Numbered from the stretch's first letter, positions 5,551-61,806 are shown. The stretch: DNA of 64,000 bases from Acidobacteriota bacterium (GCA_003388555.1 QQVD01000068.1:150633-214632), one strand, 5' to 3'. The notes: generated by a model not told the origin, from the sequence alone. A program made the numbers and translations.

Positions 5551-6618
5551 TCAGTGAGTCATCGCATAGACGATGGCATTGACGCCGATCTGGTAGGCGT
5601 AGGTCGAATACTCGAGCGGATAAAAGGGGTCCTCGGCCCACTCCCAGGCGTCGCCGAGATCGCAGTTCCAGTTGATCAGCACCATCAGGCGACGGTCCTG
5701 GTCGAAGATGCCGCGCACGTGGGGGACGAAACCGTCCTTCTCGTGAGTCCTGCCGCCCCGCCGGCCGAGACCGACGTTGGGCACCTGGACGAGGGTCTCG
5801 ATGTCGTAGAAGCCATGGAAGATCGGGTGGTCCATGTCGACTTCCTCGATCGGAAACTCCGGCAGAACGAGCTGGAATTCCTCCTCCAGGCGCCGCCACT
5901 CGGCGCTGCCCCAGAAGTCGTCGATCATCAGGAAACCGCCACTCAGCAGGTAGTTGCGCAGCCCCTCGCGCTCGCTCGCGCGCAGCGTCATCTTGCCGAC
6001 CTCCACCGCGTAGAGGAACGGATACTCGCGCAGCCTCGGGTCGTCGAGCAGCACCGGGTTCTCGCAAGGGTAGTGATCGAGACGATCCATCAGGCGCTCG
6101 ACGCCGAGGAGGAACTGGCGATCGGCCTTCGGATAGTCGACGCTCCACGAGGCGTAGCCGAAGGTCTCGAAGCCCGAGTAGGCGGCGCGCGAGAAGTAGA
6201 ACTCGTAGGGAGAGCCCGAAGGCCGTCTTCGCGGCGGGCAGTCGTCCAGCCGCTCGCCGGGGTCGGGCGGCGACAGCGGCAGGGCGAAGGGGTCGTAGCC
6301 GGCGATCCGCTCGCGCACGCCGGTCGCCGGAACCGCCGCCGAGGCGTCCGGGTACCGTCTGGCGGGCAGGATCTCCCGTCGCTCGTCGACGCCGCGAGGC
6401 TGCGCCACGGGAGCGGCCGAGGCGAGCGTCGATGCGAGGGGCGATCGCGTCGCGATGGCGCCCGCCACCAGAGTCGCCAGGCCGATCGCACCCAGTCCCA
6501 GCGCCACGACGAGCGAGGTCGGCGGCGCGTTCTGCCGCGACCGCTGCCTCGGGGCCGGACGGCCGCGGCCGTCGTCACTGGGGCGCGAGGCCCTGTGGGG
6601 CGCTGTGCGAGAGGTCAT
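5551..6618 (-). CDS. DUF4159 domain protein (Bat/VWA-associated), membrane-anchored
   Basis: PFLYAVEVGKMTL...LRNYLLSGGFLMIDDFWGSAEW...MDHPIFHGFYDIETL matches the DUF4159 pattern. The ORF track start (6855) adds an Arg/Cys-rich extension. The ATG at 6616-6618 (MTSRTAPHR... then TM LVVALGLGAIGLATLVAGAIA) is preferred. Confidence 0.7.
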   Translation of the reverse strand: MTSRTAPHRASRPSDDGRGRPAPRQRSRQNAPPTSLVVALGLGAIGLATLVAGAIATRSPLASTLASAAPVAQPRGVDERREILPARRYPDASAAVPATGVRERIAGYDPFALPLSPPDPGERLDDCPPRRRPSGSPYEFYFSRAAYSGFETFGYASWSVDYPKADRQFLLGVERLMDRLDHYPCENPVLLDDPRLREYPFLYAVEVGKMTLRASEREGLRNYLLSGGFLMIDDFWGSAEWRRLEEEFQLVLPEFPIEEVDMDHPIFHGFYDIETLVQVPNVGLGRRGGRTHEKDGFVPHVRGIFDQDRRLMVLINWNCDLGDAWEWAEDPFYPLEYSTYAYQIGVNAIVYAMTH

Positions 6619-6821
6619 CACCTTGGCAGTCTCTACGATGCTACGTCGACTTGCGTTGCCGAGCGAAATCGGAGCAGAAAGCTCGGAACGCACGCAGTCG
6701 AGGAGAGGTTCGCGTTCGATCGCGTCTCGATGGTTTCGATCGCTCGTTCGTCCGTGTGCGGCGGCGGGCGGAACAGAGCCGGCGGCGGCTCCTCGCCGCC
6801 GGACGTAACATAGCGGGCAAC

Positions 6822-7730
6822 ATGGCTGGCGCGCCCGAGCTTCCCTTCCGTCCACGCACTTCGTCTGGCATCGCCAGGCCGATGCTGGCCGCCGCCTGGT
6901 CGCTGGGGCTCCTGGCCCTCGCGGCGTCGCTGTCGAGCCAGAGGCGGGACTTCGTGGCTCCGGACCATTTCGATCGGCGCCCCGACCTCGAGGCGCACGA
7001 GCCCGACGAGCGCGACAGCGGCTCCTGGTTCAGCTTCGCGCGCGCCCGCTACGACAGCGAAGGCGGCCCGATGGAGTCCTTCTACGTCTACGACGGCCGC
7101 CTGTGGGAGCGCTGGGAGACCGACCATCCGCAGGCCGACGAGAACTTCGCCTTCCGGCTCGGGGAGCTCACCAAGATCGAGGTCAACCGTCGCTCGATCG
7201 TGCTCCGGCTGACCGACCCGAGACTGTTCGACTTCCCCTTCCTCTACTTCTGCGACGTCGGTTGGATGCGGCTCGACGACGCCGAGGCGCAGGCCCTCGG
7301 CGAGTACCTGCGGCGGGGCGGCTTCCTCTGGGTCGACGATTTCTGGGGCGAGGCCGAGTGGCGCGCCTTCGAGCGCGCCATGCAGCGCGCCCTGCCCGAC
7401 ACGCCCTGGGTCGAGCTGCCGATGGACCATCCCATCCTGTCGACTCTCTTCCCGCTCGACGGCGTGCCGCAGATCCCGGCCCGCGACTTCGCCGAGTACA
7501 TGCCGCACGATCCGCCCGAGATCCACCGCCAGCCGGCCTGGGGCATCCAGCAGGTGCGGCTGCGCGGCTACCTCGGCGAGGACGGCAGGCTGCTCGCCGT
7601 GGCGACGCTGAACACCGACATCGGCGACGGCTGGGAGCGCGAGGCCTACGGTGAGTGGTTCTTCGAGCGCTTCTCGTCGCGAGCCTACGCGGCGGGCGCA
7701 AACATCGTGCTCTACGCCCTCACCCACTGA
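6822..7730 (+). CDS. DUF4159 domain protein, paralog of 5551..6618, divergently transcribed
   Basis: FPFLYFCDVGWMRLDDAEAQALGEYLRRGGFLWVDDFWGEAEWRAF...MDHPILSTLFPLDG, the same motif set as its neighbour. Start chosen at ATG 6822 (MAGAPELPF..., then signal/TM MLAAAWSLGLLALAASL); an alternative ATG lies at 6881. Confidence 0.7.
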   Translation: MAGAPELPFRPRTSSGIARPMLAAAWSLGLLALAASLSSQRRDFVAPDHFDRRPDLEAHEPDERDSGSWFSFARARYDSEGGPMESFYVYDGRLWERWETDHPQADENFAFRLGELTKIEVNRRSIVLRLTDPRLFDFPFLYFCDVGWMRLDDAEAQALGEYLRRGGFLWVDDFWGEAEWRAFERAMQRALPDTPWVELPMDHPILSTLFPLDGVPQIPARDFAEYMPHDPPEIHRQPAWGIQQVRLRGYLGEDGRLLAVATLNTDIGDGWEREAYGEWFFERFSSRAYAAGANIVLYALTH

Positions 7731-14857: not shown

Positions 14858-17567
14858 CGATCGACTCGCTCGGCTCGATCGGCTCGATCGGCTCGGTCGG
14901 CAGCGATGGAGCGAGCGGCCGAGATCCTCCACCCACCGGCAGATGGCAGGGGCGCCAAGCGCCCTCGCCGAGACGATCCCTGTGGCTGCCGAAGCTCGAC
15001 CGGCCGGCGGCGTCGAACCGTAGCACCAGACGACCGTCGAGGTCGGTGCGAAGCACCAGGGCCCCGGTGGCGCAGAGGTCGCGCAGGACCCTCGGATGTG
15101 GGTGACCGTAGCGGTTCCTGCGCCCCGCCGACACCAACGCCCAACGTGGCCTCACCGCCGCGAGGAAGCGCGGATCGGAGGAGGTCGCCGAGCCGTGGTG
15201 CCCCACCTGGAGCACGTCGCACGAGAGGTCGCCGGTGCGGCCCAGCAAGGCGAGCTCGCCGCGGCGGTCGAGGTCGCCGGTGACCAGCACGCAGCGCCGG
15301 CGCCAGCGCGCCCTCACCACCAGTGAATCCTGGTTGCCGCGCGAGCCCGCGGCGGCGCCACCGCCGAGGACCTCGAAGCGCCAGCCAGCGGCGCTGCGGC
15401 GCTCGCCCTCGGCGAGGACCCGGATGCGGCCGTCGAACCCTCTGCGCAGCCCCTCCTCGCAGCGGCCCCCGCCCGCCATGGGCGACGCCGGCGCGGACGG
15501 GCTTCGCAGACGACGGCCGAGGTCGCCAGACACCCAGAGCTCCTCGATGCGCAGTCGCGACGCCAGCTCGACGATGCCGAGACAGTGGTCGGTGTCGTCG
15601 TGGGTGACGATCGCGGCGGCGAGGCGACCAACGCCGTGCCGTCGCAGCACCGGCTCGAGCACCTGCTGCGCGACCGAGCTGGTGCTCGCCGGGCTCCAGC
15701 CGCCGCCATCGATCAAGACAGCGCCCAGCCCGGAGGTGAGCAGAGTCGCGTCTCCCTGCCCGACGTCGAGGGCCTGCACGGTGGCGCTGGCGGCCCCGGT
15801 GACGCTTTGCAGCCCCGCCTCGAGGGCGCGACGCGCGCTCGTGGCGACCAGCGCCGCCGACACGACCGCGCCCGGCAGCGCCGTCCAGGCGAGCAGCAGC
15901 GCCAAGACCGTGCCCGGAGTCAGGGCCGTCGGGCGCCGTTCGCGGCGGGTCGGATGGCGACGTGGATCGCGGCCGCTCCGTCGGCGTGCCAACGCCACCG
16001 CCGACGACAGCGCCAGCGCCGAGCCCGCCCACCAGACCGCGGCCGCGAACGGCGGCGCCACCACCGAAGCCCGATCGGCGGCGGCCGCGACGAGGACCAA
16101 CGCCTGCACCAAGGCTTCGAGGACCCCGAGCAGCGGCCAGGCGGCCGGCGCCGAGGAGCCGACGCAGGCCAACAGCAGAGACAGCGGCAGGAGGGCGGCC
16201 ACCAGGGGCGCCGCCAGCAGATTGCCCGCCCAGGAGAGCAGGCTCCAGCGCCCGAAGGCGCCGACGACGAGAGGGAAGGTCGCCCACTGTGCCCAGGCGA
16301 CGACGGTCATCGCCTCGCCGGCGAGAACCGACCTGCCGCCGGCGGCGCCCCTACCCTGCCAGCTCCGCCGGAGCGTCAGGCCGCACCAGATGCCGAACAC
16401 CGCCGTGAACGACAGCGACAGGCCGAGCGCCTGAGCCCGCCAGGCACCGCTGGCCAGGGCCGCGACCAGGGTCAGCCCGAACACCTGCAGAGCCGCCGGC
16501 CGTCGCTGCGCAGCGACCGCCGCCAGCCAAGAGGTGACGGCGAGAGCGGCGCGCACCACCGAGGCGCCGAGCCCCGCCGCCAGGGCGTAGACCCAGACCG
16601 CCGAGAGGACGACCAGGCCCCGCGCCAGCCCGCCGCTGCGTCCTCCCCACGCCGCGCCGGCGGCGAGCGCGACGATGCCGACGTGCAGACCGCTGGCGGC
16701 GAACAGGTGACCCAACCCGGCGCCGCGGACGGTACGGGCGAAGGGGGCCGGGAGCAGACGCTGGTCGCCGAGCCACAGGGCGGCCGCCAGGCGCCCGCCC
16801 GGCGGCCGATCCTCTGTCTCGGCGGTAGCGGGTCCGTGCCGCAGCTCGGCGAGCAGGCGCCGGCGCAACGCCGCGCCCGCTCGCCGCGCCGGTCGTGTCG
16901 CCAGGCCGGTCAGAACGCGCTCGTCGCTGCGACCGGGCACCGGCCGCAGCAGGCGCTCCGACTTGACCGCCAGGGCGAGGCCGGAGGCGCCGGCGCGTCC
17001 GCGCAAAGGCTCGTCGTCCGCCCCGAGACCGTTCGCCGGCGCCGTGCGCCGTTCGATCGATCCGCGCACCCGGAAGCGATCGCCGCGTTGCGCGTCGGCC
17101 ACCGCCGCGAGACCCAGCGGCACCCGCAGTCGCACCGCCTCGCCACCGGGCACCCAGCCGGCGGGACGGCGGCGGTGCGCCACCACGATCGCCGCTGCCT
17201 CGAGGCTCCAGGGCCCGGCGGTGGGAGGCTCGGACAGCTCGACGATCGCCTCGACGACGCCACGCGGTTGAGGACCGCGCCGCTGCTCTTCGCCCACCAA
17301 GGCGCCGGCCAGGGCCCCGGCGCCGCCGAGGCCGAACAACACGCCGGCCAACGGACGGCGCCAGCCGGACGCCTGGTCGCCGCCGCACCCGTAGAGCAGC
17401 ATGCCCGCCGCCAGCAGACCGATCCAGGCGGCGGTTTCGGGCGGGCAGCCGTTGGCCGCCAGCAACGTGCCGCCGACTCCGCCGCAGGCCGAGGCGAAAG
17501 CCGGCGCACCGAGGCGCCAACGCTGCTCCAGCCACTTCGTCCGGACGGGTCCGGCACGTTCCTCCAT
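14811..17567 (-). CDS. comEC: DNA internalization competence protein ComEC/Rec2 (multi-TM + C-terminal metallo-beta-lactamase domain)
   Basis: Many TM segments; C-terminal ALDVGQGDATLL...VTHDDTDHCLG...VLQVGHHGSATSSDPRFL (MBL fold motifs). 918 aa. Confidence 0.8.
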   Translation of the reverse strand: MEERAGPVRTKWLEQRWRLGAPAFASACGGVGGTLLAANGCPPETAAWIGLLAAGMLLYGCGGDQASGWRRPLAGVLFGLGGAGALAGALVGEEQRRGPQPRGVVEAIVELSEPPTAGPWSLEAAAIVVAHRRRPAGWVPGGEAVRLRVPLGLAAVADAQRGDRFRVRGSIERRTAPANGLGADDEPLRGRAGASGLALAVKSERLLRPVPGRSDERVLTGLATRPARRAGAALRRRLLAELRHGPATAETEDRPPGGRLAAALWLGDQRLLPAPFARTVRGAGLGHLFAASGLHVGIVALAAGAAWGGRSGGLARGLVVLSAVWVYALAAGLGASVVRAALAVTSWLAAVAAQRRPAALQVFGLTLVAALASGAWRAQALGLSLSFTAVFGIWCGLTLRRSWQGRGAAGGRSVLAGEAMTVVAWAQWATFPLVVGAFGRWSLLSWAGNLLAAPLVAALLPLSLLLACVGSSAPAAWPLLGVLEALVQALVLVAAAADRASVVAPPFAAAVWWAGSALALSSAVALARRRSGRDPRRHPTRRERRPTALTPGTVLALLLAWTALPGAVVSAALVATSARRALEAGLQSVTGAASATVQALDVGQGDATLLTSGLGAVLIDGGGWSPASTSSVAQQVLEPVLRRHGVGRLAAAIVTHDDTDHCLGIVELASRLRIEELWVSGDLGRRLRSPSAPASPMAGGGRCEEGLRRGFDGRIRVLAEGERRSAAGWRFEVLGGGAAAGSRGNQDSLVVRARWRRRCVLVTGDLDRRGELALLGRTGDLSCDVLQVGHHGSATSSDPRFLAAVRPRWALVSAGRRNRYGHPHPRVLRDLCATGALVLRTDLDGRLVLRFDAAGRSSFGSHRDRLGEGAWRPCHLPVGGGSRPLAPSLPTEPIEPIEPSESIDATGASEAREKRASR
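14860..14904. repeat. imperfect tandem 9-mer repeat (TCGGCTCGA-like) x5
   Basis: tcgactcgc tcggctcga tcggctcga tcggctcgg tcggcagcg. It lies in the comEC C-terminal tail coding region (encodes PIEPIEPSE) and just upstream of the chosen miaA start. Confidence 0.85.
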
Positions 17568-17630
17568 GCCCAGGCAGAACGCCGCCGGCGCCGACCGACT
17601 GACGCCAACACGTCCCAGCCGCCTCCGGGA

Positions 17631-24985: not shown

Positions 24986-26554
24986 TCAGGGCTTGCGCAG
25001 GATGGCGAAGTTCGAGACCGCGCCCTGGCGCGTGTAGTACTGGTAGAAGAAGCGCAGATAGCCGCCGGATTCGACGTCGCCGACGATCTCCTCGAAGGCT
25101 TCGACCGAGTCGACGGCCCGTCCGTTGACTTCCGAGATCAGCGCGCCGGGCCGAATTCCCTCGTCGTAGAGCGGGCTGGACGGCTGCAGATCGACCACGA
25201 GCACGCCGTCGGCCGAGCTCGGGATGCCGAACTGCGAGCGGGTGGCGCGATCGAGTCCCTGGTACTGCATGCCCAGCCACTCGAGGCTGCTGGTCTCGTC
25301 GACCGGCTCGTCGGGCGCGTCGGCGGTCAGCGCGTCGCGCTCCTCGAGCAGGACGTCCTGCTCGATCCGCTTGCCGTTGCGCAGCAGCTCGAGCTCGACC
25401 CGCGTGCCGGGACGCTTGGAGGAGACGTACTGGATCAGATCTTCGGTGTCGACCACCTCGACCCGGTCGACGCGCAGGATCACGTCGCCGGCCTGGAGAC
25501 CGGCCTTGGCCGCCGGCGTACCGTCGACCACCTGGAGCACCAGGGCGCCCGATGCCGATTCGAGTCCGAAGGCCTCGAACTCGTTGCGCTCGAGCTCGCG
25601 GATGTTGACCCCCAGGTAGCCACGGGTCACCCGACCCTCGCTCTTGAGGTCCGGCAGCACGTCTTCGAGGATGCGTACCGGCACCGCGAACCCGATGTTC
25701 TCGGCGCCGAAGTTCATCGCCGTGGCGATGCCGATGACCTGGCCGGCGGTGTTGACCAGCGGGCCACCGGAGTTGCCGCGGTTGATCGCCGCGTCGGTCT
25801 GGATGAAGTCCTCGAACGAGCGGTCGACGAGGCCGGTGCCGGAACGCCCCTTGGCGCTGACCACGCCGACCGTCACGCTCGAAGCGAGCTGGTAGGGGTT
25901 GCCGATCGCCATCACCCAGTCGCCGACGCGAAGAGCGTCGCTGTCGCCGAGCTCGAGGAAGGTCAGATCCTCGGCCTCGATCTTGAGCAGGGCGATGTCG
26001 GTGGCGGCGTCCTGGCCGCGCACCTCGGCGTCGAACTCCTCGCCCTCGGAGTTCACCACGGTGACCCGGGTGGCTCCGTCGATGACGTGGTAGTTGGTGA
26101 CGATCCAGCCGTCCGGCGAGATCACGAAGCCCGAGCCGCCGCCGTCCTGACGGCGTTCCCGAGGCTCGTTCCCGCGCGGCTGACGCTGCTGGAAGAACTC
26201 GAACAGGTCACGCATGTCCTGCGGCGCGTCGGGGTCGACGCTCTCGATCACCGTCGAACGGATCGACACCACCGCCGGCAGCACCGCCTCGGCGAGATCG
26301 GCGAAGCTGGCGATCGAGGTCTGGGCGTGCGCGGCGACGCGTTCACCGGCCGGGGAGTCGTCGCGCGTGGCGCCGAGCGTCGGGACGGTGAGGTCGAGAC
26401 CGCCGGCGAGGACCATGCCGAAGATCGTCGCGCCGAAGGCCAGCAGCAGTGCGGGAGCCAGCCACAGCCAACGCGACGCGCCGGCGGGCTTGGAGCGAAC
26501 GGCATCGCGGTCGGGGGTGGACGAAGGGCGGTCGTGGATGGGTGTCTCGTTCAT
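24986..26554 (-). CDS. degP: DegP/HtrA family periplasmic serine endoprotease (trypsin domain + 2 PDZ)
   Basis: Signal/TM, catalytic triad context (TNYHVI...DIALLKI...GNSGGPLVN), two PDZ-like regions. Start at ATG 26552-26554 (MNETPIH) with RBS AGGAGAG. Confidence 0.85.
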   Translation of the reverse strand: MNETPIHDRPSSTPDRDAVRSKPAGASRWLWLAPALLLAFGATIFGMVLAGGLDLTVPTLGATRDDSPAGERVAAHAQTSIASFADLAEAVLPAVVSIRSTVIESVDPDAPQDMRDLFEFFQQRQPRGNEPRERRQDGGGSGFVISPDGWIVTNYHVIDGATRVTVVNSEGEEFDAEVRGQDAATDIALLKIEAEDLTFLELGDSDALRVGDWVMAIGNPYQLASSVTVGVVSAKGRSGTGLVDRSFEDFIQTDAAINRGNSGGPLVNTAGQVIGIATAMNFGAENIGFAVPVRILEDVLPDLKSEGRVTRGYLGVNIRELERNEFEAFGLESASGALVLQVVDGTPAAKAGLQAGDVILRVDRVEVVDTEDLIQYVSSKRPGTRVELELLRNGKRIEQDVLLEERDALTADAPDEPVDETSSLEWLGMQYQGLDRATRSQFGIPSSADGVLVVDLQPSSPLYDEGIRPGALISEVNGRAVDSVEAFEEIVGDVESGGYLRFFYQYYTRQGAVSNFAILRKP

Positions 26555-27214
26555 GGCTTTGCGAACTCTCCTGGAGGGGCGACGCATTCTCTCCGTGACT
26601 CGAAGCGGCGTCGGCTCTTCTTGCTCTGACTCGTGCTCTGGCTCGTGATCTGACTCGATCGTATTGCGTTCGGGCCCTGTCTTCGGGTGTCTCGTGCAGC
26701 GCGATCTGCTTCACCGCCGCCGGCCGCCGAACCGTCGGCGGCGCACTCTCCGCGGCTGGCCGCTGCCCTGCCGTCGATCCCGGCGGGGCGAGCCGGATTC
26801 GTCTCTCGTCGTCTCCGGCCCGATCGTGGTCCCGATCCTTGGGGGTGCAGCCGCCACAGGGTCGCTTCGTTCTCGCGGTGTCGCGATGCGAACAGGGCGC
26901 AGGGGGCGGCTCCCTGTCACGTCGCGTACCTCAACGTCCTCTCGAGGGGACGAAATTTCAGCACTTCCCGGAGACACTTCCCGGAGACTCGGTATCGCAC
27001 CCGCGCACCCGACGGGCGGACGGCTCCTCGGCCGGGTCCCAGCGCGCCCGCAGCGTCGGGCGGCGCGCCGCCGGTGCGTCGCCGTCGAGCGGCGCTCCTA
27101 ACATCTGAACTGCATCGGGACCCCGTAACCTGAGCGCCCTGGAGTCGCTGGGCGGTCCGGACCGGGCTCCGCCCCCGCGCCGAGCCTTCCGGCCGCCAAT
27201 CGTCCTCTCGCCTC

Positions 27215-27243
27215 TTGCACGCCGCAACGGACTGAGCTATGCT
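27215..27243 (+). promoter_or_regulatory. candidate sigma70-type promoter (TTGCAC-17-TATGCT)
   Basis: -35 TTGCAC at 27215-27220, a 17-nt spacer, -10 TATGCT at 27238-27243. It lies about 50 nt upstream of the terminator hairpin; pattern match only. Confidence 0.3.
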
Positions 27244-27294
27244 GCTTGACGCTTGCCCGCGTCCCACCAGGAGGCGTGCAGGCGAAGCTCAGAA

Positions 27295-27321
27295 GTGGGT
27301 TTCCAGCCCACTTTTTTTATT
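27295..27321 (+). terminator. Rho-independent terminator (7-bp GC stem, 3-nt loop, T7 tract)
   Basis: GTGGGTT-TCC-AGCCCAC followed by TTTTTTTATT, read directly. It is very conspicuous in a 70% GC genome. Confidence 0.7.
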
Positions 27322-27624
27322 GCCCGAATCTCCCCGCGCCCGAGACCGGCGCGCAACGGCCTTCGGGGTGCCGATCGCGGACGAAGCCTCCTCGGAGCCG
27401 CTGCCGCCGCTGCGAGCGGGACGCCGGGGGCCGGGCTCGAGGCGGGCAGTCGCGGAGGGCGCGGCTCGCTGTCTGCGCTGGCCCTCACGGGCCCGAACGG
27501 GCGGCAGCGACCTCCGGGGCGCCGACGCTGCCGAGGCCCTGGCTCGCGGGTGCCGGCCTGGCAGGCCGAACCGGCCGCACCGACCGCAGGCTCCGAACCA
27601 GACCGACCCGTCTCCTGCCCCATC

Positions 27625-27684
27625 GCATGACCCGCATGACCCGCATGACCCGCAGCCTCTGAAGCACCTGAAGCCCTCTGAAGC
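27625..27684. repeat. tandem (GCATGACCC)x3 followed by (CTGAAGC) x3 spaced repeats
   Basis: gcatgaccc gcatgaccc gcatgaccc at 27625-27651, then ctgaagc recurring at about 10-nt spacing through 27684. Just upstream of rimP. Confidence 0.85.
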
Positions 27685-27851
27685 AGAAGCATCGACGAGA
27701 AGCAACCAGTCCGTTGAAGCCCATCGAGCACAACGATCCCACCGACGACGGCAAGTTGGCAGCGGCTGCCGGCCCATCCTCCGAGGCGGCATCCGAAGCG
27801 ACATCCGAGCCGACGGCCGGCAGCGATGACCTCGCACGCGGCGAGCACGGC

Positions 27852-28355
27852 ATGCCGCCGGTGCACGTCGGCGCCGGAGTGCGCTTCTCCTCCAGCCAGC
27901 TCGACGAGCTCGCCGACGCTGCGGCGATCTTCGGCTGCCAGCTGCTCCACGTCGGCATGCAGGGCCCGACGCTGCAGTTCGTCATCGATCACCCGGACGG
28001 CGTCGACGTCGACCACTGCGCCGACGTCTCCAGGCAGATCTCGGCCCTGCTCGACCGCGACGACTTCGGCAGTCGTCGCTACGTGCTCGAGGTGTCCTCG
28101 CCCGGCATCGAGCGGCATCTCTACTGGCTGGACGACTTCCGCCGCTTCGTCGGCGAGAAGGCGCGCATCACCCTGCGCACCCCCCAGGGAGGCAAGCGCA
28201 CCGTGCAGGCACGGATCGTCTCCGCCGAGGACCTCCCGCCGGCTGCGACCGGTGAGGTGACCGTCGCACCCGAGGACGGCGGCCCGACGCCAGAGGACCG
28301 ACTCACCTTCTCCACCGAGGACGTGATCAAGGCGCATCTCCTCTTCGAAGCGTGA
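27852..28355 (+). CDS. rimP: ribosome maturation factor RimP
   Basis: VDHCADVSRQISALLD...LEVSSPGIERHL matches the RimP signature. ATG at 27852 (MPPVHV) aligns with the E. coli N-terminus. The ORF track TTG start at 27714 adds a low-complexity extension. Confidence 0.8.
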   Translation: MPPVHVGAGVRFSSSQLDELADAAAIFGCQLLHVGMQGPTLQFVIDHPDGVDVDHCADVSRQISALLDRDDFGSRRYVLEVSSPGIERHLYWLDDFRRFVGEKARITLRTPQGGKRTVQARIVSAEDLPPAATGEVTVAPEDGGPTPEDRLTFSTEDVIKAHLLFEA

Positions 28356-28504: not shown

Positions 28505-30091
28505 ATGGCGCAGGCAAAGGCTCCCGAAATCAACCTCACCGAGGTCCTCAAGCAGGTCGCGCACGAAAAGGACATCGACCTGGACCGCTGGATCAGCGCG
28601 CTCGAAGACGCAGTGGCCTCGGCGGCGAAGAAGCAGCACCGGATCAAGGAGCCGGTGCGGGCCAAGATGGATCGCGAGACCGGTCAGTTCGAGGCCTTCA
28701 TCGTCAAGACCGTCGTCGAGGAGGTCGAGGATCCGCACGCGGAGTGGACCCTCGAGGAGGCCCGCGAGCACGAGGACGGCGCCGAGATCGGCGACGAGAT
28801 CCTCCGCCCCCTCTCCACCGAGGGGCTCGGCCGCATCGCCGCGCAGTCGGCCAAGCAGGTGCTGTACCAGCGGGTGCGCGAGGCCGAGCGCGAGAAGATC
28901 TACAACGAGTACATCGACCGTGTCGGCGACATCGTCAACGGCACGGTGCGCCGGTTCGAGCGCGGCGACATCATCGTCGACCTGGGTCGTACCGAGGCGG
29001 TGGTGCCACGCAGCGAGCAGTCGCGCCACGAGCGCTACTCGCAGGGTGAACGCATCCGCGCCGTGATCGTCGACGTGCACACCCAGCCGAAGGGCCAGCA
29101 GGTGGTGCTGTCGCGGACCGATCCCCGCCTCCTGATGAAGCTGTTCGAGATGGAGGTGCCGGAGATCTACGACGGCACTGTGGTCATCAAGACTGCCGTC
29201 AGGGCGCCCGGCGAACGCGCCAAGGTGGCGGTGCAGAGTCGCGAGCGTGACGTCGATCCGGTAGGCGCCTGTGTCGGCATGAAGGGGTCGCGCGTGCAGT
29301 CGATCATCCGCGAGCTCCGCGGCGAGAAGATCGACATCATCGAGTACAGCGAGGACCTCGTGACCTTCGCCCAGAGCGCGCTGGCTCCCGCCCGCATCAC
29401 CCGCGTGGCGGTCAACTCCACCGGCGACGTGCCGCACCTGGACGTCATCGTCGAGGACGAACAGCTCTCTCTCGCCATCGGCAAGCGCGGCCAGAACGTC
29501 CGCCTGGCCTCGGAGCTGATCGGAGCGCGCATCGAGATCAAGAGCGAGACCGACGTCAAGGACGAGGTCGCCGACGCGCTCGCCAAGATGCTGCACATCG
29601 GCGGCCCGGATTCGCAGGAAGCCGACTTCAGTCAGGCTCCCGATCTCGACCAGGCGCAGGCGGACGCCCTCAGGGCGGCCGGCTATGAGACCTACGAGAG
29701 CGTCGCTCAGTCGTCGGTGGGCGAGCTGACCAAGGTCGAGGGACTCGACATGCTCACCGCGGCCGGTCTGATCGACTGGGCCACCGACCGGATGGAGGAG
29801 GAAGAGGAGGCCGCCCGCTCTGCCGCCGGGTCCGAGGAGGAGGAGAGCGAGGCCGACAGCGGCGACGACGGCGAGCTCGACTTCATGGCCGCCCTTTCGA
29901 AGGCGTTCCAGGAGGCGGAGCAGGAGGCAGCCGCCGAGAAGGCGGCGGTGGAGAGCGCGATCGGAGAGTCCGAGGACTCCACCGATGACGACGGCGCCGA
30001 CGAGGCCGGCGAGCACGGCGACGCCGAGGACGGAGAGAACGGAGAGGATGGAGACGGTGCGGAGGAGACCGACGAAGAGGGCGAGAAGTAG
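28505..30091 (+). CDS. nusA: transcription termination/antitermination factor NusA (with acidic C-terminal extension)
   Basis: S1 and KH domains (GDIVNGTVRRFERGDIIVDLG; ACVGMKGSRVQSIIREL...AIGKRGQNVRLA). rimP-nusA-infB synteny. Confidence 0.9.
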   Translation: MAQAKAPEINLTEVLKQVAHEKDIDLDRWISALEDAVASAAKKQHRIKEPVRAKMDRETGQFEAFIVKTVVEEVEDPHAEWTLEEAREHEDGAEIGDEILRPLSTEGLGRIAAQSAKQVLYQRVREAEREKIYNEYIDRVGDIVNGTVRRFERGDIIVDLGRTEAVVPRSEQSRHERYSQGERIRAVIVDVHTQPKGQQVVLSRTDPRLLMKLFEMEVPEIYDGTVVIKTAVRAPGERAKVAVQSRERDVDPVGACVGMKGSRVQSIIRELRGEKIDIIEYSEDLVTFAQSALAPARITRVAVNSTGDVPHLDVIVEDEQLSLAIGKRGQNVRLASELIGARIEIKSETDVKDEVADALAKMLHIGGPDSQEADFSQAPDLDQAQADALRAAGYETYESVAQSSVGELTKVEGLDMLTAAGLIDWATDRMEEEEEAARSAAGSEEEESEADSGDDGELDFMAALSKAFQEAEQEAAAEKAAVESAIGESEDSTDDDGADEAGEHGDAEDGENGEDGDGAEETDEEGEK

Positions 30092-30224: not shown

Positions 30225-32612
30225 ATGGCAAAGATTCGCGTCCAGGACATCGCAAAGAAGATGGGAGTCCCCGAGCAGGACCTCCTCTTCAAGCTGAAGT
30301 CGATCGGCGTCAGGGTCGAGGGTGAGGAATCGCTCATCGACAGCGACGTGATCGGCGCGTTGCTGCAGGGTCGTACCCTGCCGCAGGGACCGCAACGCGA
30401 GGTGATCATGCGCGACAAGGGCGCTCCGCCACCGCCTCAGCGGCGTCAGCGGCGCCCCTCGCCGCCGCCTCCGACCGGCGGCCCGCGCCCACCACGTCGA
30501 CGCCAGGTCGTTCAGAAGACCGACGCGAAGATCCGGGCGATCCCGACGACTGCACGGCGGCCTCGCAAGCCGACGCCCGAGGAGATCGCCGCCCGCGAGA
30601 TGGCCGAGAAGGAGAAGGCCGCGGCGGCCGCGGCCGCCGAGGAGCGAGCCCTCGAGGAGCGCAAGAAGAAGGCGACCGGGGCCGACGAGGACGCCGCCGA
30701 GGCGGTCTCCGAGCGCAAGGACTCCCCCGCCGACGACGAGAAGGCCGTCGCCGCCGAGCGCGAAACCGCCGCCGACAGTGCCGAGGAGCAGGAAGCGGTC
30801 GCCACGGCGCCGGGTGAGGTGCCCGAGCACCCGCCTGTCTCGCCGCAGGACGACATCGTGACGATCGCCGAGGGGCTGCGCGTGCGCGACCTCGCCGAGA
30901 AGCTCGACATGAAGGCCAAGGACCTGATGAAGACGCTCTTCCAGCGCGGCATCATGGCCAGCGTCAACCACGTTCTCGAGCCGGAGCTCGCGCGTCAGAT
31001 CGCCGAGGACCTGGGCTTCGAGGCGATGGTGGTCTCCTTCGAGGAGGAGGTCCAGCTCCAGCACGAGATCGAGACCGAGTCCGACGGCGCCAACCGCACG
31101 ACCCGCCCACCCGTGGTGACCGTCATGGGCCACGTCGACCACGGCAAGACCTCGCTGCTCGACGCCATCCGCAAGTCGAAGGTCGCCGAGGGAGAGCACG
31201 GCGGCATCACCCAGCACATCGCCGCCTACCGCGCCGATCTCGGCGAGGGCAAGCAGGTCGTCTTCCTCGATACGCCGGGCCACGAAGCGTTCACTCAGCT
31301 GCGCGCCCGCGGTGCCCGGGTCACCGACATCGTGGTGCTGGTCGTCGCTGCAGACGACGGCGTCATGCCCCAGACGATCGAGGCGATCCAGCACGCCCGC
31401 GCCGCCAAGGTGCCCATCCTGGTGGCGATGAACAAGATGGACCGCCCGAACGCCAACCCCGACAAGGTGAAGAAGGAGCTCTCCGAACAGGAGCTGCTGG
31501 TCGAGGACTGGGGCGGCGACGTGGTCTGCGTGCCGATGTCGGCGATCAAGGGCGAAGGCATCGACGAGCTGCTCGAGATGATCTACCTGACCGCCGAGAT
31601 GAGGGAGCTGACCGCCGACCCCACCTTGCCGGGCCAGGGCGTCGTGCTCGAGGCGCGCAAGGAGCTCGGCCGCGGCATCGTCGCGACGGTGCTGATCCAG
31701 AGCGGCACCGCCGAGGTCGGAGAGACCTTCGTGGCCGGCGCGACCTGGGGTCGCATCCGCGCCATGACCGACGACCGTGGCAACAAGCTCGACTCCGCCG
31801 GTCCGTCCACGCCGGTCGAGGTCTCCGGTTTCAACGAGCTGCCCAACGCCGGCGACCCGATCCAGATCGTGGCCAAGGAGTCGCAGGCCCGCGACATCGC
31901 CGAGCTGCGCCGCGAGGAGCTGCGCCAGCGCGAGCTCGCGCCGGCCGCCGGTCGCATGTCCCTGGAGTCCCTGTTCAGCAAGATCCAGGAGGGCGAGGTC
32001 AAGGAGCTTCCGGTCATCGTCAAGGCCGACGTGCAGGGCTCCGTCGAGGTGCTCAAGGACGCCCTCGCCAAGCTCTCCACCGACAAGGTCAAGGTGCGCG
32101 TGATCGGCGCCAACGCCGGCGCCATCTCGACCAACGACGTGCTCTTCGCGTCGGCCTCGGACGCCATCGTCGTCGGCTTCAACGTCCGCCCGGAGCGCAA
32201 CGCCTCCGATCTCGCAGCGAAGGAACAGGTCGAGATCCGCACCTACACCGTCATCTACGAGTTGATCGACGAGATCAAGCAGGCGATGACCGGCCTGCTC
32301 GAGCCCACCTTCCGCGAGGTCGAGCAGGGTCGCGCCGAGGTAAGGGAGACGTTCAAGGTGCCCAAGGTCGGCGTCGTCGCCGGCTGTCACGTCATCGAGG
32401 GCGTGATCCAGCGTGGCAGCAGCGTCCGCCTGCTGCGCGACAACGTCGTCGTCTTCGAGGGCGGCATCGCCTCGCTGCGTCGCTTCAAGGACGACGCCGC
32501 CGAGGTGCGCAGCGGCTTCGACTGCGGCATCGGGCTGGCGGGCTACCAGGACGTCAAGCCCGGGGACGTGATCGAGGCCTTCAAGCAGGAGACCGTGGCG
32601 CCCACTCTCTGA
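30225..32612 (+). CDS. infB: translation initiation factor IF-2
   Basis: G domain [29 protein letters not shown]. 795 aa. Confidence 0.9.
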
Positions 32613-59068: not shown

Positions 59069-59534
59069 GGGGTTGGGTGCTCCGGGAGTCTCGTACGTCG
59101 CGCCATCAGCGGCGCCGACGTGCCGCGGGCCGACGCCCCGGGGACGCGCGGCACGGACGGTGGCGAGAGCTTCGGTTCGAGGAGGGGATCGCGGGTGCGG
59201 TTCGCGAATGCTCTGTGCAGACCCGTCGGGGCGGAGAGCGAAGGGAGTGTGGACGGTAGATGGTCGGTGGAGGGCCGTTTCACCGGGCCTTGGCCGGCAC
59301 CCCGAGACGGGCCGAACGCACCGCCGTCGTCACTCGGCCTCCCCTGCGCCGGACCAACGAACGGCGATGCGGCCTTGTTCCCTCGGCGTTCCCTCGCGGC
59401 CGGCGCCGGTCCGCCGCCCGGAGCCCGCTCGCAGACCGAGCGATCTCGGCGCAGACCGGCAGGCGGAGTCGCCGTCGGGTCGCCGCAGGACGGCGCGCAG
59501 TCTAGCAACGAGGAGCGGTCAGTCGACGCCGTCG

Positions 59535-59562
59535 CCGAGGTCCGAGGTCCGAGGTCCGAGGT
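59535..59562. repeat. perfect tandem heptamer (CCGAGGT)x4
   Basis: ccgaggt ccgaggt ccgaggt ccgaggt, read directly. It lies in the 713-nt divergent intergenic region between moxR and the sigma54 activator gene. Confidence 0.9.
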
Positions 59563-59781
59563 GAGAGCGTCCAGCGGGCGGGCGGGCCGAGAGACGGCAA
59601 CGAGGTCCCTCGGTGGGCACCGGCGAAAACTCCAGAACGTAGTAATCTCGTCGCCAAGATCGGCCGAGGGTGTTCCGGAAGGGATCACGGCGCCGATGCG
59701 CGCAGCCCATCCGAGGCCGATCCCGGGCTCCACGAGGCGCCCGGTGCTACATGAACCGATCCCGGAAGTTCACACGAAGCG

Positions 59782-61257
59782 ATGCACGAAGACGGCGAAC
59801 CCTTGATCCTCCTGGTCGACGACGACCGCACCCAGCTCCACCTCCTGCAGAGCTGGCTGACCCGCGAGGGATACCGGGTGCAGAGCTTCCAGGAGGGCGA
59901 GTCGAGCGTCGCCGCGCTCGCCCACTCGCTCCCAGACGCGGTCTGCCTCGACCTGCACATGCCGGGGCTCGACGGCATCGAGGTGCTGCGCCGCATCCGC
60001 CATGCGCAGCCGTCGCTGCCGGTGCTGATCATGACCAGCGACACCCAGATCGACAGCATCGTCGGAGCGATGCGCGAGGGCGCCTGGGACTACCTCGCCA
60101 AACCCATCAACCGCAACGACCTGCTGAATCGCCTGACCCACGCCGTCGAGCACTACCGCATGCACCTTCGGCTGCAGCACCTCGAGCGCGAGGCAGCCGG
60201 CCGCACCTTCCCGGGGATCATCGGTCGCAGCGCTCCGATGCGTCAGCTCTACCGCCAGATGGACCGGCTCACCGAGAGCGACATCACAGTGCTGGCACAC
60301 GGCGAGAGTGGCACCGGCAAGGAGCTGGTGGCTCGCGCCATCCACTTCCAGAGTGCCCGCAAGGAGGGGCCCTTCGTCGCGGTGAACTGCGCCGCGATTC
60401 CCGAGACGCTGCAGGAGTCCGAGCTCTTCGGTCACGAGAAGGGCTCGTTCACCGGCGCCACGACGCGGCGTATCGGCAAGTTCGAGCAGGCCAACCGCGG
60501 CTCCATCTTCCTCGACGAGATCGCCGAGCTCTCGTTGTCGGCCCAGGCGAAACTGCTGCGGGTACTCCAGGAGCGCCTCTTCCTCAGGGTCGGAGGCAAT
60601 CAGGAGCTGAGCTCCGACTTCCGACTGCTCGCAGCGACTCACCGCGACCTCCAGCAGGAAGTGGATGCCGGCCGTTTCCGCGAGGATCTCTACTTCCGCG
60701 TCGCCGTCTTCGAGCTGGAGATCCCGCCGCTGCGCGAGCGGCTCGACGACCTTCGCGAGCTCGCCACCAGCTTCGTCGAGCAGTTCGCCAAGAGCGAGGA
60801 GCTGGGACCGCTCGCGCTGACCGAGACGACCATGGGCATCCTCGAGCGCTACACCTGGCCCGGCAACGTGCGCGAGTTGCAGAACGCCATGCAGCGCGCC
60901 GCCGTGGTCGCGGAGGGAGGTGAGATCCACCCCCACAACCTGCCACCCCGGATCGTCGAAGCGCTCCGTGGGCAGGGCGTCGAGATCCCGGAGCCACCGG
61001 CCAGCCCCGAGCCGACGCCGGCAGCCGATCGTCCGGCGGCGGCCGACGGCGAGGCGGTGAACGGCGAAACGGCACCCGAGCCCTCCGACGGAGACGCCTG
61101 GCCGGACTTCGGCGAGGTGACCCTCGAGGAGCTCGAGAAGGAAGCGATCCGTCAGGCGATGCAACGCCTGGACGGCAACGTCTCCCAGGTGTGTCGTGAG
61201 CTCGGCATCGGCCGCACGACGCTGTATCGCAAGCTGCAGAAGTACGAGCTGCGCTGA
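59782..61257 (+). CDS. sigma54-dependent transcriptional activator, NtrC family response regulator
   Basis: REC (LILLVDDDRTQL...CLDLHMPGLDG), GESGTGKE, ESELFGHEKGSFTGA, C-terminal Fis-type HTH (NVSQVCRELGIGRTTLYRKL). Confidence 0.85.
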   Translation: MHEDGEPLILLVDDDRTQLHLLQSWLTREGYRVQSFQEGESSVAALAHSLPDAVCLDLHMPGLDGIEVLRRIRHAQPSLPVLIMTSDTQIDSIVGAMREGAWDYLAKPINRNDLLNRLTHAVEHYRMHLRLQHLEREAAGRTFPGIIGRSAPMRQLYRQMDRLTESDITVLAHGESGTGKELVARAIHFQSARKEGPFVAVNCAAIPETLQESELFGHEKGSFTGATTRRIGKFEQANRGSIFLDEIAELSLSAQAKLLRVLQERLFLRVGGNQELSSDFRLLAATHRDLQQEVDAGRFREDLYFRVAVFELEIPPLRERLDDLRELATSFVEQFAKSEELGPLALTETTMGILERYTWPGNVRELQNAMQRAAVVAEGGEIHPHNLPPRIVEALRGQGVEIPEPPASPEPTPAADRPAAADGEAVNGETAPEPSDGDAWPDFGEVTLEELEKEAIRQAMQRLDGNVSQVCRELGIGRTTLYRKLQKYELR

Positions 61258-61806
61258 GCGCTCGCGCGGCCGACCGGGCGACTACGAATTCAACGGACCG
61301 GACGGGCAGGCGTACGGATCCGCCTTGGCGCTGGCGTCGGTGCACACCACCGCAACCGCCTCCAGGCTCTCCCTCGACAGGATCCGGGGTGGCCGATAGG
61401 GGCGCTTCTCGGTCGCCTCCGGCTTCGGTTCGCTGCTCTTCATCTGTCTCGCTCGCCTCTCTCGTTCGGCCTTTACGGCCGGCGTCCCGGCGCCACGACG
61501 CTGCCGTGGCACCGGAGTGGTGCCGCCGGGCCCGTCATCGTGGGAGGTCGTGGCCCGGCGGCACTGGATCCTCTGTCGGGATCCTACACCCCTTGGGCTG
61601 GCCGCCGATGATTCGACTTGCAAGTTCCCGACCACCGTCCCGTGTGTCAGCCTGGCACACCCACCGGCGAGCACACGGCTGGCCGAGGACGTTCGTATAC
61701 TGCGGCCTCCGAGGAGGTTACGCTGCTCCGCGACCGCAGCGCGCACGGCGCTGCCTCGCCTCTTGCTGCGATCCCGATCCCGGTCGCGAGCCCGTCCGAC
61801 CCTACG

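Follow-up and report, generated by a model that had tools for sequence, protein, structure and literature searches.

Between the divergent genes degP and rimP of an Acidobacteriota bacterium lies a gap of about 1.3 kb, at positions 26555-27851 of the 64,000-nucleotide (nt) stretch analysed here (GCA_003388555.1 QQVD01000068.1:150633-214632; hereafter the window). A first-pass annotation of the stretch had proposed a candidate small RNA (sRNA) of ~70 nt in this gap, with its own promoter and intrinsic terminator. Here, we report that the terminator of this candidate belongs to the rimP-leader family of transcription attenuators, and that promoter, leader and terminator form a unit conserved in relatives. 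The element is very probably the promoter and leader of the rimP-nusA-infB operon, carrying a rimP-leader transcription attenuator. The first-pass annotation had delimited the promoter, the transcript (27250-27318, ~69 nt) and the terminator correctly; what does not hold is the kind of object, since in place of a new sRNA gene standing by itself there is the leader of rimP-nusA-infB with its published attenuator hairpin. An apparently novel sRNA candidate thus becomes a known and very widespread cis-regulatory element, which most bacteria have ahead of these genes.

Results

A rimP-leader hairpin on the rimP side of the gap

The hairpin and its U-tract comprise the following features:

27295-27301, plus strand: 5' arm of the terminator, GTGGGTT
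27302-27304, plus strand: loop of the terminator, TCC
27305-27311, plus strand: 3' arm of the terminator, AGCCCAC
27312-27318, plus strand: U7 tract (T7), the sole A/T homopolymer of at least 6 in the 64-kb window
27286-27322, plus strand: rimP-leader attenuator (A-rich flank, GUGGGU...GCCCAC hairpin and U7), from covariance model R1, described below, and a terminator scan

Sequence and fold agree on the plus-strand intrinsic terminator GTGGGTT-TCC-AGCCCAC + T7, which stands as it was first described, and the remark that its T7 tract is conspicuous in such GC-rich DNA holds for all 64 kb. The 7-bp core of the stem is lengthened to 11 bp by A-U pairs (27291-27315). For a generic terminator pattern, the region is not enriched (4 found, 4.1 expected).

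The rimP-leader has been called "the most ubiquitous transcription attenuator" (Naville & Gautheret 2010, Genome Biol 11:R97, Fig. 2b; PMC2965389). The description is of a terminator with an unusually well conserved GGGc(...)gCCC motif in its stem and a U-stretch behind it, specific to the 5' untranslated region (UTR) of rimP-nusA-infB and 4-130 nt from the gene. No antiterminator was visible, and NusA was proposed as the likely effector. The published list holds no Acidobacteria, though two acidobacterial genomes were analysed. Positions 27289-27322 of the window (CAGAAGTGGGTTTCCAGCCCACTTTTTTTATT) are nearly identical to examples in the supplementary list of that study, namely those of Nostoc (GGAAGTGGGTTAATGCCCACTTTTTTTATT), Syntrophobacter (GAGAAGTGGGTTTACCGGCCCGCTTTTTTTGTT) and Anaeromyxobacter (GAAAGTGGGCCGCGGTCGCCCACTTTTT). 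The window carries the GGGU...GCCC variant of the signature, which is also present in the published Nostoc example.

A covariance model of 37 positions (R1) was built from 33 published rimP-leaders of alpha- and deltaproteobacterial, cyanobacterial, clostridial and bacillus-class origin, none of them acidobacterial. When both strands of the window were searched with R1, a single significant match was obtained, full-length and at 27286-27322 on the plus strand (32.6 bits, E=2.5e-5). The other match in the window is the reverse-strand shadow of the same site (E=0.8), and R1 with filters off found no second, degenerate attenuator nearer rimP. In ~0.95 Mb of related loci, every R1 match sits upstream of rimP, and 18 of 19 loci from the class Thermoanaerobaculia have one. 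The host itself is placed in this class of Acidobacteriota through its NusA relatives, and these 19 loci (L005-L023; NusA identity 66-84%) are the Thermoanaerobaculia relatives compared below.

A conserved promoter and the predicted leader

Immediately upstream of the terminator, the following features were located:

27215-27220, plus strand: -35-like hexamer TTGCAC, aligned to the cAACTTGaCn -35 region of the Thermoanaerobaculia relatives (3/6 match to TTGACA)
27238-27243, plus strand: -10-like hexamer TATGCT, 17-nt spacer from the -35 hexamer; TATAAT or TATACT at the aligned position in relatives
27250-27318, plus strand: predicted leader transcript of ~69 nt, ending at the attenuator, its start placed from the -10 position
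27251-27258, plus strand: GCTTGCCC box at the predicted 5' end of the leader, aligned with CCAGCTTGCCC of relatives
27250-27284, plus strand: predicted 5' leader hairpin, 13 bp in three segments, loop CACCA

The hexamers TTGCAC-17-TATGCT do lie at 27215-27243 as first reported, and what speaks for them comes from the relatives, in which a near-consensus promoter, cAACTTGaCn-17-TATAAT (TTGACN-17-TATAAT), aligns exactly with them, 45-60 nt before the U-tract. In the aligned upstream sequences of the Thermoanaerobaculia, the order is promoter, ~7 nt, CCAGCTTGCCC box, variable hairpin and terminator. Where the gap between degP and rimP measures only ~165-280 nt, this appears to be the only candidate promoter that the operon has.

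The segment 27250-27320 folds into two hairpins (-35.8 kcal/mol, z = -5.15), and none of 200 shuffled sequences folds as well. When 10 leaders (the window and 9 relatives) were folded, nearly all had a stem-loop just 5' of the terminator, that of L022 being weak. The sequence and length of this 5' hairpin vary by lineage, and covariation is not statistically established. The terminator stem is nearly invariant, its variation being limited to the closing pair and one A-U/G-C pair, and GTGGG is identical in 17/17 aligned Thermoanaerobaculia leaders. This conservation of the stem is at the level of sequence, as was also observed in PMC2965389.

The minimum-energy folds consist of two independent hairpins. 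A 5-bp pairing of CCCAC (27263-27267) with GUGGG (27295-27299) is conceivable in the window; it is not kept in relatives, and no systematic search for alternative structures was made. A conserved antiterminator was considered and rejected: the 5' box and the 3' arm of the terminator have only GCCC (4 bp) in common, so that such a pairing was judged not to be competitive.

The CCAGCTTGCCC box is kept in eight of the relatives (L005-L007, L009, L011, L012, L014 and L021) and in part in L019 and L020. It stands at the predicted transcript start, and the published description of the rimP-leader mentions no larger conserved element. The box could act as a discriminator, be bound by a protein or simply be initial transcribed sequence.

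Occurrence of the hairpin across Acidobacteriota

The divergent arrangement of degP (minus) and rimP (plus) is found in 16 of the 19 Thermoanaerobaculia loci, with the two genes ~165 to ~1,000 nt apart as against ~1,300 nt in the window. In nucleotide comparisons (blastn), the terminator is the only part of the gap with a match in relatives, and no collinear translated matches were found. With low-complexity filtering switched off, tblastx produced numerous short matches that were not collinear; these were disregarded as compositional noise of GC-rich DNA. A listing of T-runs upstream of nusA showed aGAAGTGGGC-loop-GCCCAC-T7-GTTGG just before rimP in 16/19 loci; L010 and L016 have hairpin variants with interrupted U-tracts.

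A wider search with a regular expression for the motif covered 80 Acidobacteriota-related loci and the window (81 sequences, about 1 Mb). The hairpin lies upstream of rimP, and on the same strand, in 69 of these. Three matches were classed as lying elsewhere, among them that of L084, which was so classed only since rimP was not located there. Comparison of the orthologous degP/rimP region, which the first-pass annotation had put forward as a check, thus finds the promoter-leader-terminator unit conserved, and places the rimP-leader across Acidobacteriota, a phylum missing from the 2010 list.

Some lineages show features of their own. The Terriglobia (L030-L084) have a separate conserved rimP leader, ~95 nt upstream of the hairpin (e.g. 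L043:5262-5377), made of a promoter (GTTTGTCTTTT...GGCGTATATT) and then a leader of ~55 nt that ends in GTGGGCGCAAGCCCAC-T5; within it, CUGUUGUGU can pair with GCACACCAG to give a 5' hairpin. L042 (Ca. Sulfotelmatobacter) has two rimP-leader hairpins, at 142-162 and 2252-2272, ~2.1 kb apart. The minus strand of the interval encodes a TacA-like antitoxin (Pfam TacA1, 6e-21) as well as a GNAT acetyltransferase, as if a TacAT-type toxin-antitoxin pair had inserted into the leader region and one copy of the hairpin had been kept near rimP.

The gap is non-coding and unusually long

The first reading of the gap as free of coding sequence is borne out. Codon-phase GC is flat over ~26600-27500 (maximum minus minimum 0.02-0.15, as against 0.43-0.62 in degP, rimP and nusA), positions 26555-27713 are empty in the recorded gene calls of the matching contig, and none of 8 open reading frames (ORFs) in the gap had a match in Pfam. 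The length of the gap, on which the first-pass annotation had remarked, also stands out in the window: judged by a crude codon-phase GC3 filter, no other run that lacks a coding-like signal is as long (1291 nt here, 810 nt for the runner-up). Other such stretches, of 537-810 nt, lie at 16821-17630, 59120-59754, 6310-6875 and 61255-61791.

On either side of the promoter-leader-terminator unit, the gap consists of two flanks:

26555-27214, no strand assigned: degP-proximal 660 nt, in which no element was detected by Rfam, sigma-54, folding and conservation searches
27319-27851, plus strand: spacer or read-through 5' UTR from the attenuator to rimP, 395 nt to TTG 27714 and 533 nt to ATG 27852

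On the degP side, 16 fold windows taken on both strands gave z scores between -2.1 and +2.0, and the 660 nt have no Rfam match and no conservation in relatives. The first-pass annotation had allowed for a longer non-coding RNA that starts further upstream and ends at the same terminator; this suggestion is not borne out, in view of the promoter directly upstream of the leader and of 660 nt that lack structure signal, Rfam match and conservation. No sigma-54 promoter pattern for degP was found in the gap, the total for the window being below chance. A 13-mer (CACTTCCCGGAGA) occurs twice as a perfect direct repeat at 26962-26987, and a 12-mer, absent from the first-pass annotation, occurs three times at 26622-26657. 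Both could be binding sites for a regulator of degP.

The spacer on the rimP side is ~70-80% G+C, with no codon-phase GC signal to ~27500 and a weak one beyond. It folds no better than shuffled sequence (z = +1.27), resembles neither the relatives nor the rest of the window, contains no T-run of 4 or more, and yielded no sigma-70-like promoter. The plus strand of 27562-27691 is C-rich and G-poor (C/G 1.9-2.1, about the 99th percentile of the window), a composition that, speculatively, resembles a Rho-utilisation site. The spacer also carries short tandem repeats: the 9-mer CGCATGACC in 3.4 copies at 27624-27654, a 9/10-mer in 3 copies at 27657-27685 and a 12-mer, not previously noted, in 2.9 copies at 27780-27814. 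The repeats that the first-pass annotation listed are thus real, with the amendment that the first of them is the 13-mer at 26962-26987 and that the arrays of the spacer run over 27624-27654 and 27657-27685. In several lineages, tandem repeats of 9-17 nt occupy part of the interval from the leader terminator to rimP (window 27624-27685, L016:5345-5400, L018:5225-5300), and their sequences are mutually unrelated.

A repeated or mobile element as the source of the two flanks was considered and rejected, since neither has copies elsewhere in the window. Both flanks look like a lineage-specific non-coding expansion. In a search for closer relatives by which the spacer might be dated, a metagenome scan with RimP gave only 38-51% identity.

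Neighbouring genes and origin of the sequence

The genes that bound the gap, and those that follow rimP, are:

24986-26554, minus strand: degP/htrA-family protease gene, divergent, forming the boundary of the gap (Pfam Trypsin_2 and PDZ)
27852-28355, plus strand: rimP, from ATG 27852 (Pfam RimP_N, 4.6e-17; RimP C-terminal domain, 3.9e-7)
28505-30091, plus strand: nusA (Pfam NusA_N, S1 and KH_NusA)
about 30225-32612, plus strand: infB, downstream of nusA

The recorded gene call of the contig begins rimP at TTG 27714, as an alternative to ATG 27852. The start cannot lie upstream of 27714 because of in-frame stops at ~27660-27670. After infB, the order is DUF503, rbfA, a DHH-family gene, truB, rpsO and pnp. 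NusA has 528 amino acids (aa) and a long acidic, Glu/Asp-rich C-terminal tail (window 29900-30091). The window matches metagenome contig ENA ERZ869938 NODE_79, and the gap is 100% identical in three contigs from different samples (ERZ869938, SRR7515930 and SRR7515931), which makes an assembly artefact unlikely.

Discussion

Based on the published family and the conserved layout, a simple sequence of events can be proposed. RNA polymerase would start at ~27250 from TTGCAC-17-TATGCT and would transcribe the 5' hairpin (27250-27284) and then the GUGGGU...GCCCAC hairpin with its U7 (27291-27318). A fraction of the polymerases would terminate at 27316-27319 and release an RNA of ~69 nt; the remainder would read through a 5' UTR of 395-533 nt into rimP, nusA and infB. 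The ratio of termination to read-through would respond to NusA, so that NusA and the genes transcribed with it would be under negative feedback, with no need for an antiterminator structure. Attenuation responsive to the dosage of NusA is likely by analogy with Bacillus subtilis and Escherichia coli: nusA of B. subtilis is autoregulated through intrinsic termination in its own leader, which NusA stimulates (PMC12288461, a review citing Mondal et al. 2016), and the NusA of E. coli is a repressor of the operon that encodes it (references in PMC2965389). The terminated leader may in turn persist as a small RNA, as suggested by the case of Salmonella, whose rimP leader is among the ProQ-associated sRNAs derived from attenuators (PMC5391140).

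Several observations weigh against the identification of the element as an attenuated rimP leader, or against parts of the proposed mechanism. The window hexamers agree with the promoter consensus at 7 of 12 positions only and fail a standard promoter scan, and the transcript start, the 3' end and the read-through are all inferred from sequence. NusA-dependent terminators of B. subtilis tend to be weak. The terminator in the window is strong (GC-rich stem with a core of 7 bp, extended to 11 bp, and a perfect U7), and NusA may for this reason matter less here. The distance from the terminator to rimP, 395-533 nt, exceeds both that seen in relatives (about -9 to 162 nt) and the 4-130 nt of PMC2965389; the latter range is a property of the published examples and not a requirement of the mechanism. 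An unseen promoter inside the spacer could bypass the attenuator. Finally, the scan against Rfam that the first-pass annotation had recommended identified no RNA family. RF01770, the rimP leader family of Rfam, has no match in the window at its 47-bit gathering threshold, nor at E<=10 on the 96-nt slice 27240-27335; at E<=10, this slice and the slice 26300-28100 gave only chance-level matches to unrelated terminator-containing sRNA families. In a positive control, E. coli scored 102 bits with RF01770. Since RF01770 is silent and the model built from published members matches, the element of the window falls outside the Rfam family and yet within the broader class of 2010.

Of the other explanations, the first is that of the original proposal, an independent sRNA gene. 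According to this explanation, the ~69-nt RNA acts in trans on other mRNAs or proteins, and the proximity of rimP is incidental or has been uncoupled by the 400-530-nt spacer. The unit has a promoter of its own, a strong terminator and a stably folding RNA, it stands unusually far from rimP in the window, and the Salmonella precedent implies that the terminated product of a rimP leader can be a stable RNA. Such a gene is nevertheless distinctly unlikely: strand and site upstream of rimP are kept in 69/81 sequences, with the motif nearly absent elsewhere, and the part under conservation is the terminator stem and not a single-stranded seed, while the sequence from the 5' box to the terminator varies freely by lineage. 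A constitutive insulator, which would shield the operon from stray upstream transcription with no regulatory role and leave the operon promoter downstream of 27319, is very improbable. The terminator is strong and canonical, and a spacer of 395-533 nt has room for a further promoter, but none of the sigma-70 type was found there. The near-consensus promoter conserved in relatives lies only about 50-60 nt before the terminator, so the terminator acts on transcripts of the operon itself; a stem sequence conserved across phyla would, moreover, be unneeded for generic insulation.

A hidden protein gene, or one decayed to a pseudogene (e.g. by frameshift), with the hairpin as its terminator, is barely credible. 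ORFs of 88-196 aa do exist in several frames of the gap, as expected at 71% G+C, but the flat codon-phase GC of 26600-27500, the lack of gene calls in the matching contigs, the 8 ORFs without Pfam match and the relatives without collinear nucleotide or translated matches all speak against coding, and a promoter ~50 nt before the terminator leaves no room for a gene. Less remote, if still unlikely, is a derived state of the attenuator itself, in which a lineage-specific expansion of ~400-500 nt may have split the rimP-leader from rimP. The unit would then either be turning into an autonomous, attenuator-derived sRNA gene, with rimP on an unseen downstream promoter, or have been joined by a long GC-rich 5' UTR (C-rich and G-poor at 27562-27691) that adds a second layer of control, e.g. 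Rho-dependent termination.

The identification of the element as a rimP-leader attenuator has practical consequences for annotation. Because Rfam models the gammaproteobacterial form only, Rfam-based annotation misses the element, and scans will continue to report it as a novelty. This gap would be filled by a general model of the rimP-leader, for example one like the 37-position R1. The long distance between attenuator and rimP is a small curiosity, which could serve to test whether an attenuator must be near its gene.

Several known systems resemble the element. Among attenuator-derived, ProQ-associated sRNAs, such as the Salmonella rimP leader and SraF (PMC5391140), a leader whose transcription ends early can survive as a separate sRNA, as the leader of the window may do. 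In the metY-rimP-nusA-infB operon of E. coli, which NusA represses, a short structured RNA and terminators likewise come before rimP; there, the tRNA gene metY lies upstream, whereas a tRNA/tmRNA search for a metY-like gene found none anywhere in the window. The nusA attenuator of B. subtilis is also an intrinsic terminator in the 5' leader of a NusA-encoding operon (PMC12288461). Its mechanism has been demonstrated experimentally in B. subtilis only, and for the terminator of the window, with its U7 and GC-rich stem, dependence on NusA is uncertain, more so than for the weaker versions of the firmicutes. The family RF01770 ('Gammaproteobacteria rimP leader') differs in being a 102-nt model with an upstream tandem terminator (GCCCCGA...UCGGGGC followed by U's), but its 3' module, cUGGGCU...GCCCUUUUUUU, is the same hairpin and U-tract. 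The closest resemblance is to the general form of the rimP-leader. The window departs from it in the distance to rimP (395-533 nt instead of 4-130 nt), and the Thermoanaerobaculia versions add the CCAGCTTGCCC box and the 5' hairpin. The two otherwise share the G-rich 5' arm and C-rich 3' arm, the GGGc(...)gCCC signature, the A-rich 5' flank and the U-stretch, and the same place and strand, in the 5' leader of rimP-nusA-infB.

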